DNA from: Deinococcales bacterium
GTDB lineage: Bacteria; Deinococcota; Deinococci; Deinococcales; Deinococcaceae
Assembly: GCA_025359705.1 (NCBI GenBank)
Contig: JANYFS010000611.1
Location: 1 to 28,864 of the forward strand
Direction of reading: 5' to 3'
DNA: 28,864 bases
Numbering within the stretch: the first letter of the stretch is position 1; every line of letters begins with the position of its first letter. Positions 14,531 to 16,097 of this stretch are shown piece by piece. The position numbers and the translations under genes are program-made. The notes under the pieces were generated by a model, which searched no databases, was not told the DNA's origin, and saw nothing but the letters and a program-made list of their open reading frames with translations.

Positions 14531-14678
14531 GCAATTTCTTATTATAAAAAAAGGGTCTGGGTGGAAAACCCACGGATTTATCCGTGGGATGTAGAATCCT
14601 GGTGAGCGACCAAGCCCGTAAGGTGCTGCTTTAGGGTCAAGACAGCGCAGCGAACGCAAGGCTTGAGCTTCTTTATTC

Positions 14679-14707
14679 TTGCACTTCCAGCCTAACTATG
14701 CTACTAT
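14679..14707 (+). promoter_or_regulatory. Sigma70-type promoter of tnpB (leaderless transcript likely)
   Basis: TTGCAC, 17-nt spacer, extended -10 TG-C-TACTAT, GTG start 7 nt later. Confidence 0.65.
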
Positions 14708-14714
14708 CATAACT

Positions 14715-15944
14715 GTGATCAACCTCGAGTACAAATTATACGGTTCAGATGCTCAGTACCGCCTCATTGATGAAGCGATTCGTACTACTCAATTTGTCCG
14801 CAATTCTTGTATTCGTTACTGGATGGATAGCAACCCTAAAAACTCGAAAGAGACAGAGGGTAAATCTGCCGGAAAATATGATCTAGTCAGATACACCACC
14901 CAACTCCGTAAGGATTTCCTGTGGTGTAAAAAACTGAATTCCACCGCTGTACAAAATGCAGGTGAACGTGCATGGAGTTCAGTTGCACGTTTCTATGACA
15001 ACTGCAAAAAAGGTATCAAGCCCGTAAGTTATCCCAAGTTCAAGAAAAACAATCGAAGCGTCGAATACAAGCAGTCGGGTTGGAAAGTTGATGCTAAACA
15101 AAAACACATTACGTTTACCGATGGGTTTGGAATTGGCACTTTGAAACTTAAGGGAACCTGGGATTTAAGTTTGTACTCGAGTGATCTGATCAAACGGGTA
15201 CGGATTGTAAAACGAGCCGATGGCTACTATGTTCAATTCTGTATCAATGTAGAACGCAGTTTGGAACTCGAGCCAAGTGGAAAAACGCTGGGCTTGGATG
15301 TGGGGCTGAAAAGTTTTTACACCGATTCCAATGGTAAAGAAGAACCTAATCCTAAATTCCTTCGTAAAGCCGAAAAGAAACTGAGGAAACTACAGCGCAG
15401 AGTCTCGAGGAAAGAACTTGGAAGTAACAATAGAAAGAAAGCTGTGAATCGACTAGGAAGAGTTCACCTTGAAGTTCAACGCCAACGTAAAGACCATGCA
15501 GTAAAACTCGCGCGGTGCTTAATGATGTCTCATGACCTCGTGGCGATTGAAGATTTAAGAGTGAAGAACATGGTGAGAAACCGGAAACTCTCCAAGTCGA
15601 TCAGTGATGCAAGTTGGAGCCAATTTAGAACTTGGCTCGAGTATTATGGGAAGGTATTTGGGAAGGTATTTGGGAAGGTAAATCCCGCGTACACCACACA
15701 GCTATGCTCGAGTTGTGGGAAGATCGTTAAAAAAGATCTGAAACAGCGAGAACATATTTGTGGCTGTGGATTGCATTTAGACCGCGACCATAATGCTGCC
15801 TTAAATATCTTAAAAGCTGGACTACGTACCGTAGGGCATACGGGAACGATAGGGGAAACCCTAGAAACGCTTGTGGAGACCGAAGAAGACCAAGGACTTA
15901 GGTTTTTGGCATCAGTCGTTGAAACAAGAATCCCACGGTTTTAA
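14715..15944 (+). CDS. tnpB: TnpB RNA-guided endonuclease
   Basis: RuvC I GLDVGL, RuvC II AIEDL, Zn finger CSSCG..CGCG, RuvC III DRDHNAALNI; all three catalytic acidic residues are present. Confidence 0.93.
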   Translation: MINLEYKLYGSDAQYRLIDEAIRTTQFVRNSCIRYWMDSNPKNSKETEGKSAGKYDLVRYTTQLRKDFLWCKKLNSTAVQNAGERAWSSVARFYDNCKKGIKPVSYPKFKKNNRSVEYKQSGWKVDAKQKHITFTDGFGIGTLKLKGTWDLSLYSSDLIKRVRIVKRADGYYVQFCINVERSLELEPSGKTLGLDVGLKSFYTDSNGKEEPNPKFLRKAEKKLRKLQRRVSRKELGSNNRKKAVNRLGRVHLEVQRQRKDHAVKLARCLMMSHDLVAIEDLRVKNMVRNRKLSKSISDASWSQFRTWLEYYGKVFGKVFGKVNPAYTTQLCSSCGKIVKKDLKQREHICGCGLHLDRDHNAALNILKAGLRTVGHTGTIGETLETLVETEEDQGLRFLASVVETRIPRF

Positions 15945-15969
15945 CCGTTGGAGTGTCAAGATTTCTTAT

Positions 15970-16097
15970 TAGAGCGTTTGTCAGAGTAGTGAGCGGATGA
16001 ATTATCCTGCTCGGAAAATTATTTATCTGTCTGATACACGATATTTATGATTGTTTCTTAACGAAAAACGGATAACGAATAACGGACAACTGCTCTA
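15970..16097 (+). repeat. MITE-like dispersed repeat copy (128 bp)
   Basis: Ends TAGAGCGTTTGTC ... GACAACTGCTCTA; colinear with the 22500-22620 copy (83/121 identical by manual alignment, plus one extra AACGAAT heptamer). Confidence 0.85.

Follow-up and report, generated by a model that had tools for sequence, protein, structure and literature searches.

A REC-helix residue that follows the target motif among relatives of a deinococcal solo-tnpB element

How does a transposon-encoded nuclease stay matched to the target motif of its element? Solo TnpB elements number in the thousands, and a TnpB that reads TTAT is already in use. The transposase finds its target through DNA base pairing, and a single substitution can flip that target, whereas the TAM of the nuclease is read by protein; that the two match is usually assumed. 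The question is raised by a stretch of 28,864 nucleotides from a Deinococcales bacterium (the window), in which positions 14546-15959 (1,414 bp) are likely to be a solo-tnpB IS605-family (IS1341-group) element, presumably moved by TnpA in trans and inserted 3' of TTAT. Among its relatives a known contact residue tracks the motif flip over many independent changes, which bears on how the nuclease stays matched. Since close natural sisters differ at the DNA guide and at this residue, the question can be tested with few constructs; if the residue is indeed decisive, TAM specificity would be predictable from, and movable by, a single position.

Element boundaries and insertion site

The element, its parts, the 11-bp repeat and the adjoining MITE are given on the forward (+) strand. 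The left end (14546-14590) consists of a 19-nt spacer, the guide AAAA (14565-14568), a perfect 9-bp hairpin directly 3' of it (14569-14588) and a closing AT. Just upstream, and outside the element, lies the tetramer TTAT (14542-14545), the left cleavage site and predicted TAM according to guide/target covariation. The right end, taken together with the predicted omegaRNA scaffold provisionally from 15830 to 15959, holds GAAT (15928-15931), a hairpin with one C:T mismatch (15932-15951) and the terminal TCAA (15956-15959), directly followed by the 16 nt GATTTCTTATTAGAGC. An earlier sequence-only reading had placed the AAAA, both hairpins, the TTAT and the single mismatch correctly. With tnpB as sole gene and subterminal hairpins with 5' DNA guides at both ends, the element has the hallmarks of the IS1341 group of IS200/IS605.

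Relatives bear out the right end at 15959 and its GAAT/TCAA pair, as first proposed: GAGTGTCAA or a close variant ends most of 85 related loci, with GAAT and a hairpin before it and unrelated DNA after it. Two contigs of run X3 also depart from the window, as loose ends, exactly after 15959. On the left, matches to the left-end type combine guide AAAA with TTAT in 12 of 15 cases, and of 44 matches with AAAG or AATG, 40 have TTAC, several of the exceptions being chance or decayed matches; in a wider set, AAAA/TTAT occurs 37 times and AAAG/TTAC 54 times. This covariation, which obeys the pairing rule of IS608 (PMC5934647), together with the junction of sister L203 described below, upholds the left end that had been put at 14546. 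The motif had been given as (A)TTAT, of which the tetramer is sustained by the AAAA/TTAT pairing in relatives and the fifth base is not: because any base may precede the tetramer (T19/G9/C9/A7), we take the motif to be TTAT rather than ATTAT. The window left end carries a 7-nt run before GGGTC; slippage as the source of its seventh A was rejected, since sisters L209, L210 and L261 likewise have 7 nt.

Sister L203 (87% identity) splits an MFS gene. When it is cut out directly after TTAC and directly after TCAA, a 449-aa MFS frame returns at a junction that cannot slide, and the restored protein aligns without gaps, over 449/449 residues, to an intact ortholog on contig C287 of the window genome. 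In this sister the insertion is scarless and made no target-site duplication. Sister copies had been suggested as a check on the boundaries, and both the wider relatives and L203 agree with the proposed ends. At the window locus itself, a search of four runs for an empty site yielded no joint across the element, and among genus relatives no fetched locus holds both flanks together. The element is single in the assembly, with no second full copy, and three left-end remnants without tnpB lie elsewhere in the genome. Contigs from a second study, with flanks diverged by 3-5%, cross the left junction out of the flank and extend from tnpB over the right end into the adjoining MITE; since these diverged contigs carry both junctions, the insertion is old and common to strains. 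The copy is probably stranded.

What, then, is the exact 11-bp repeat found near both ends (14534-14544 and 15961-15971)? That it is a target-site duplication, with the element ending elsewhere, is scarcely credible, because the repeat stands apart from the conserved ends, such a repeat is seen in no relative, L203 was inserted without duplication, and this genome has about 30 times as many short tandem duplications as shuffled DNA (94 versus 3). We read it as a pre-existing host duplication. When unrelated AT-rich DNA was joined to the left flank 20,000 times, a straddling repeat of at least 11 bp arose 3 times; 20,000 naturally contiguous sites gave 451, which makes the joined flanks about 150 times likelier as once-contiguous than as unrelated DNA. 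The identical 11-bp match is obtained with the left end shifted by anything from -1 to +5. The 13-bp duplication that had been invoked in support of the boundaries thus speaks for flanks that were once adjacent and leaves the exact base undefined, and the assertion that a 13-bp period is typical of this genome failed, periods of 12, 14 and 15 being commoner (310, 161 and 157 versus 117). Short tandem duplications at 14447-14495 and 16297-16327 vary in copy number between strains. Because of such variation, the genome-wide excess of 8-16-bp duplications is attributed to an active process and not to assembly.

How might the element have arrived? By the mechanism known from IS608, TnpA acting in trans would insert it as single-stranded DNA 3' of TTAT, the target being picked by pairing with the left-end guide AAAA; here it would have entered a short host tandem duplication, leaving the target unduplicated. 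IS608 of Helicobacter pylori has the same GAAT/TCAA right end and a left guide at the hairpin foot, and its TTAC/AAAG pair is exactly that of the sisters of the window element (PMC5934647). The window element differs from it in the absence of tnpA, in the use of AAAA with TTAT and in the position of the guide (+20 to +23 versus +16 to +19). IS1341-group solo tnpB elements of Deinococcota and Cyanobacteria, at 55-70% identity, have the same ends and likewise no tnpA; unlike them, the window element combines TTAT with Val rather than Asn58 and carries a 39-bp host repeat in its 5' region.

Residue 58 and the -1 base

By the usual rule, the TAM equals the transposon target motif (10.1101/2023.03.14.532601). 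Three sisters with 87-88% identity use AAAG/TTAC whereas the window element uses AAAA/TTAT, and the window protein is placed among TTAC elements on the tree; for this reason we searched for a residue that tracks the motif. Column 58 makes 1 leave-one-out error in 97, and the next best column 16. Among 98 distinct proteins, all other TTAT elements (42/42) have Asn58, and 54 of the 55 TTAC elements have Ser, Gln or Tyr. The window protein has Val58 (14886-14888, codon GTC, with no difference in contig 4 of run X1), and its TTAC sisters have Ser (TCC). Profile alignment to 8BF8 equates residue 58 with S56 of ISDra2 TnpB, which contacts the -1 TAM base (PMC10097598).

Motif and residue 58 change 11 times each on a tree built without column 58. 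With the motif as trait, independent pairs gave 6 in the same direction, 0 opposite and 2 without difference (p=0.03); with the DNA guide as trait the test is weaker (median p 0.06). Left ends were parsed in about half of the loci, and a first pair test on 55 rows had contained too few pairs. Two predictions made beforehand came true: the second Val protein, P0040 (80% identity, truncated), follows TTAT/AAAA, and the Ser protein P0163 follows TTAC/AAAG. Val58 with a readable left end is represented by two elements, perhaps alike by descent or recombination; the ends of P0164 and P0165 (Val) and P0022 (Thr) were unread. One exception, L124, is an Asn element with guide AAAA and a TTAC flank. 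A distant subfamily that uses this end type has Met in its AAAG/AATG elements and Ala in the one TTAT element, a pattern that is suggestive only. Since ISDra2 combines Ser with T at -1, a residue-58 code would be family-specific. In P0040 (L261:1630-1745), some 6-7 tandem 15-bp units expand the loop before the TAM helix, and the protein is truncated after the second catalytic residue.

The association between residue 58 and the motif is, as drawn from these comparisons, a correlation. Taken together with the target motif, it makes TTAT the most likely TAM of the window nuclease. For the subfamily, we see even chances that one REC-helix residue sets the -1 TAM base and has changed along with the DNA guide about 11 times, in which case the Val/TTAT window element and its Ser/TTAC sisters would capture the switch. 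Across the family residue 58 switches with the fourth base of the guide; it would then read the -1 base, and Val would be a second solution, besides Asn, for TTAT. A TTAT TAM is in itself already known from ISDge10 of Deinococcus geothermalis, whose TnpB, compared by description, is likewise about 390-410 aa long and comes from the same host family (PMC11589281, PMC13507860); what is new are the TTAC sisters and the covariation at residue 58. No residue rule for TTAC versus TTAT was found in the literature searched, which covered few subscription papers.

Alternatively, the nuclease may be relaxed at -1 (TTAY or TTAN), with Val58 as a permissive intermediate that let the guide flip between AAAG and AAAA while empty-site cleavage was kept. 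This would suit the use of TTAC by the closest sisters (87-88%), a Val unlike the Asn of the 42 other TTAT proteins, and the flexible TAM use reported for a TnpB (PMC11043419). We nevertheless think it unlikely, as TTAT lies before both Val elements whose ends could be read, no Val/TTAC case was found, and a family-wide association this tight implies that a matched -1 base is under selection. Could the association reflect linkage only, with joint inheritance of the left end and the first part of tnpB, so that any nearby column would track the motif? The distance from left end to codon 58 is about 320 bp, mosaicism is apparent among the sisters (L210 and L261 have one promoter type in common), and columns 53 and 55, close by, come third and fourth in the ranking, but these neighbours make 17-18 errors where column 58 makes 1, column 58 is the structurally known -1 contact, and Asp stands at position 56 in a paralog of ISDra2 for which TTGAC is predicted (PMC12415229). 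Linkage strikes us as quite improbable.

The nuclease, its RNA and the transposase

The tnpB gene (14715-15944, GTG start) encodes 409 aa and has its stop codon in the right hairpin, an arrangement that close relatives have too. Its product scores 278.6 bits against the guided TnpB model NF040570 (cut-off 100). The RuvC residues D195, E279 and D358, which had been called an intact D-E-D, are present, as is the zinc site C331/C334/C349/C351; the intact triad sets the protein apart from TldR, the nuclease-dead TnpB repressor with a conserved host target. It falls below the NF038280 and NF049972 cut-offs, and the element has hairpin ends and no CRISPR array, unlike IS607 or Cas12f systems. An AlphaFold model was poor (mean pLDDT 57) and was left out of the analysis. 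ISDra2 TnpB (PDB 8BF8, 8H1J) shares the fold family, the D-E-D triad, the zinc site, an ORF tail overlapping the omegaRNA, and Gln80. The window protein is distant from it (E 3e-42) and has Ser76 instead of Lys76, Val58 instead of Ser56 and an additional loop, some 10 aa long, ahead of the TAM helix; the ISDra2 TAM is the 5-nt TTGAT.

Is the window copy still active? It is possible, if doubtful, that it is a decayed relic with correct ends and an inactive or unexpressed RNP. No cognate tnpA was found, there are the three tnpB-less left-end remnants, many TnpBs with intact RuvC test inactive, such as that of IS608 (10.1101/2023.03.14.532601), and the assembly has L269 and F319-G320-K321 at conserved sites. 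The latter letters (15671-15676) are private to the assembly: all four runs and the sisters read L-V-A there, all four runs read V at 269, and five letters of the ORF have no support in any of the four runs. L269 and F319-G320-K321 are an assembly error or a private mutation, and their absence from the runs speaks against decay, as do the intact frame, catalytic and zinc residues. A dN/dS of 0.11-0.14 versus the sisters points the same way and suggests that the tnpB lineage is under functional constraint, although it reflects the past of the lineage rather than the window copy. The motif KVFGKVFGK was rejected as a real lesion, being absent from the reads. Sister TnpB P0121 (L209:1535-2758) has D204G and, beside the catalytic Glu, D280A, both at nearly invariant sites, and is possibly decaying.

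We envision that tnpB is transcribed from a probable leaderless promoter and that this RNA extends into the flank, its 3' end giving rise to the omegaRNA. A likely promoter, TTGCAC-N17-TACTAT (14679-14707), was picked by eye 7 nt before the start codon, and sister L203 has the same layout; a consensus promoter scan did not return it. The predicted omegaRNA folds with a z of -1.6, and two of its stems are conserved in the alignment; an Rfam search gave no match. The flank-derived guide had been predicted to follow 15959, and we likewise place the predicted guide at 15960-15975 (16 nt); it had escaped notice that, because the MITE starts at the TA at 15970, bases 13-16 are MITE-derived. The guide matches the site left by excision, and a MITE-free allele at 14/16. 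By analogy with ISDra2 and ISGst, TnpB would cut an allele that lacks the element but has TTAT and a guide match, and repair templated by an occupied copy would restore the element. A genome search for TTAT followed by a guide match returned no other site with fewer than 4 mismatches, which again is unlike TldR. Self-targeting of the upstream repeat copy was rejected, since TTGC precedes it and its first base is mismatched.

Most tnpB genes lack an accompanying tnpA (10.1101/2023.03.14.532601), and none lies within 14546-15959, in line with the sequence-only reading. A search for a cognate tnpA in trans found none in the genome, which is 91% complete; its only tnpA is on contig C390, and the encoded TnpA is 28-32% identical to the TnpAs found beside the window left-end type in relatives. 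The C390 element (G000:C390:1643-3215, L001) is an autonomous IS605 element with divergent tnpA and tnpB, guide AAGT, target TTAA and a different right end; L113, from another genome, has the same AAGT/TTAA pair. In Deinococcaceae several distant TnpB subfamilies (25-66% identity; L214, L230, L240, L246 and others) have one left-end sequence in common, which suggests that nuclease genes were exchanged between common ends.

Repeats around and within the element

The MITE that supplies the last bases of the guide (15970-16097) is 128 bp long, has TAGAGC...GCTCTA termini and 41 near-full genome copies, and ends at 16097 in loose ends of runs X1, X3 and X6. A simple end scan returned no long autonomous partner for it. 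The 39-bp dispersed host repeat in the 5' region of the element (14605-14643) has about 45 genome hits, with G000 contigs C626 and C452 among its places, and is modular, often forming tandem arrays. It is polymorphic among sisters, with none in L209, one unit in L203 and an expansion in L210; that it is private to the window copy was rejected, L203 having it. A contig of run X3 skips the repeat with a joint at 14604-14644. Close strains differ in whether they have it, and it also occurs in another family of the order. It lies at window 14605-14643 and at L264:1447-1490, and within left ends of this IS lineage it is inserted at two sites, in both orientations and beside AGC/GCT. Upstream of the element, a terminator-like hairpin (14498-14529) follows a 114-aa ORF; its stem is improved by the C that three runs (X1, X3 and X5) have at 14520.
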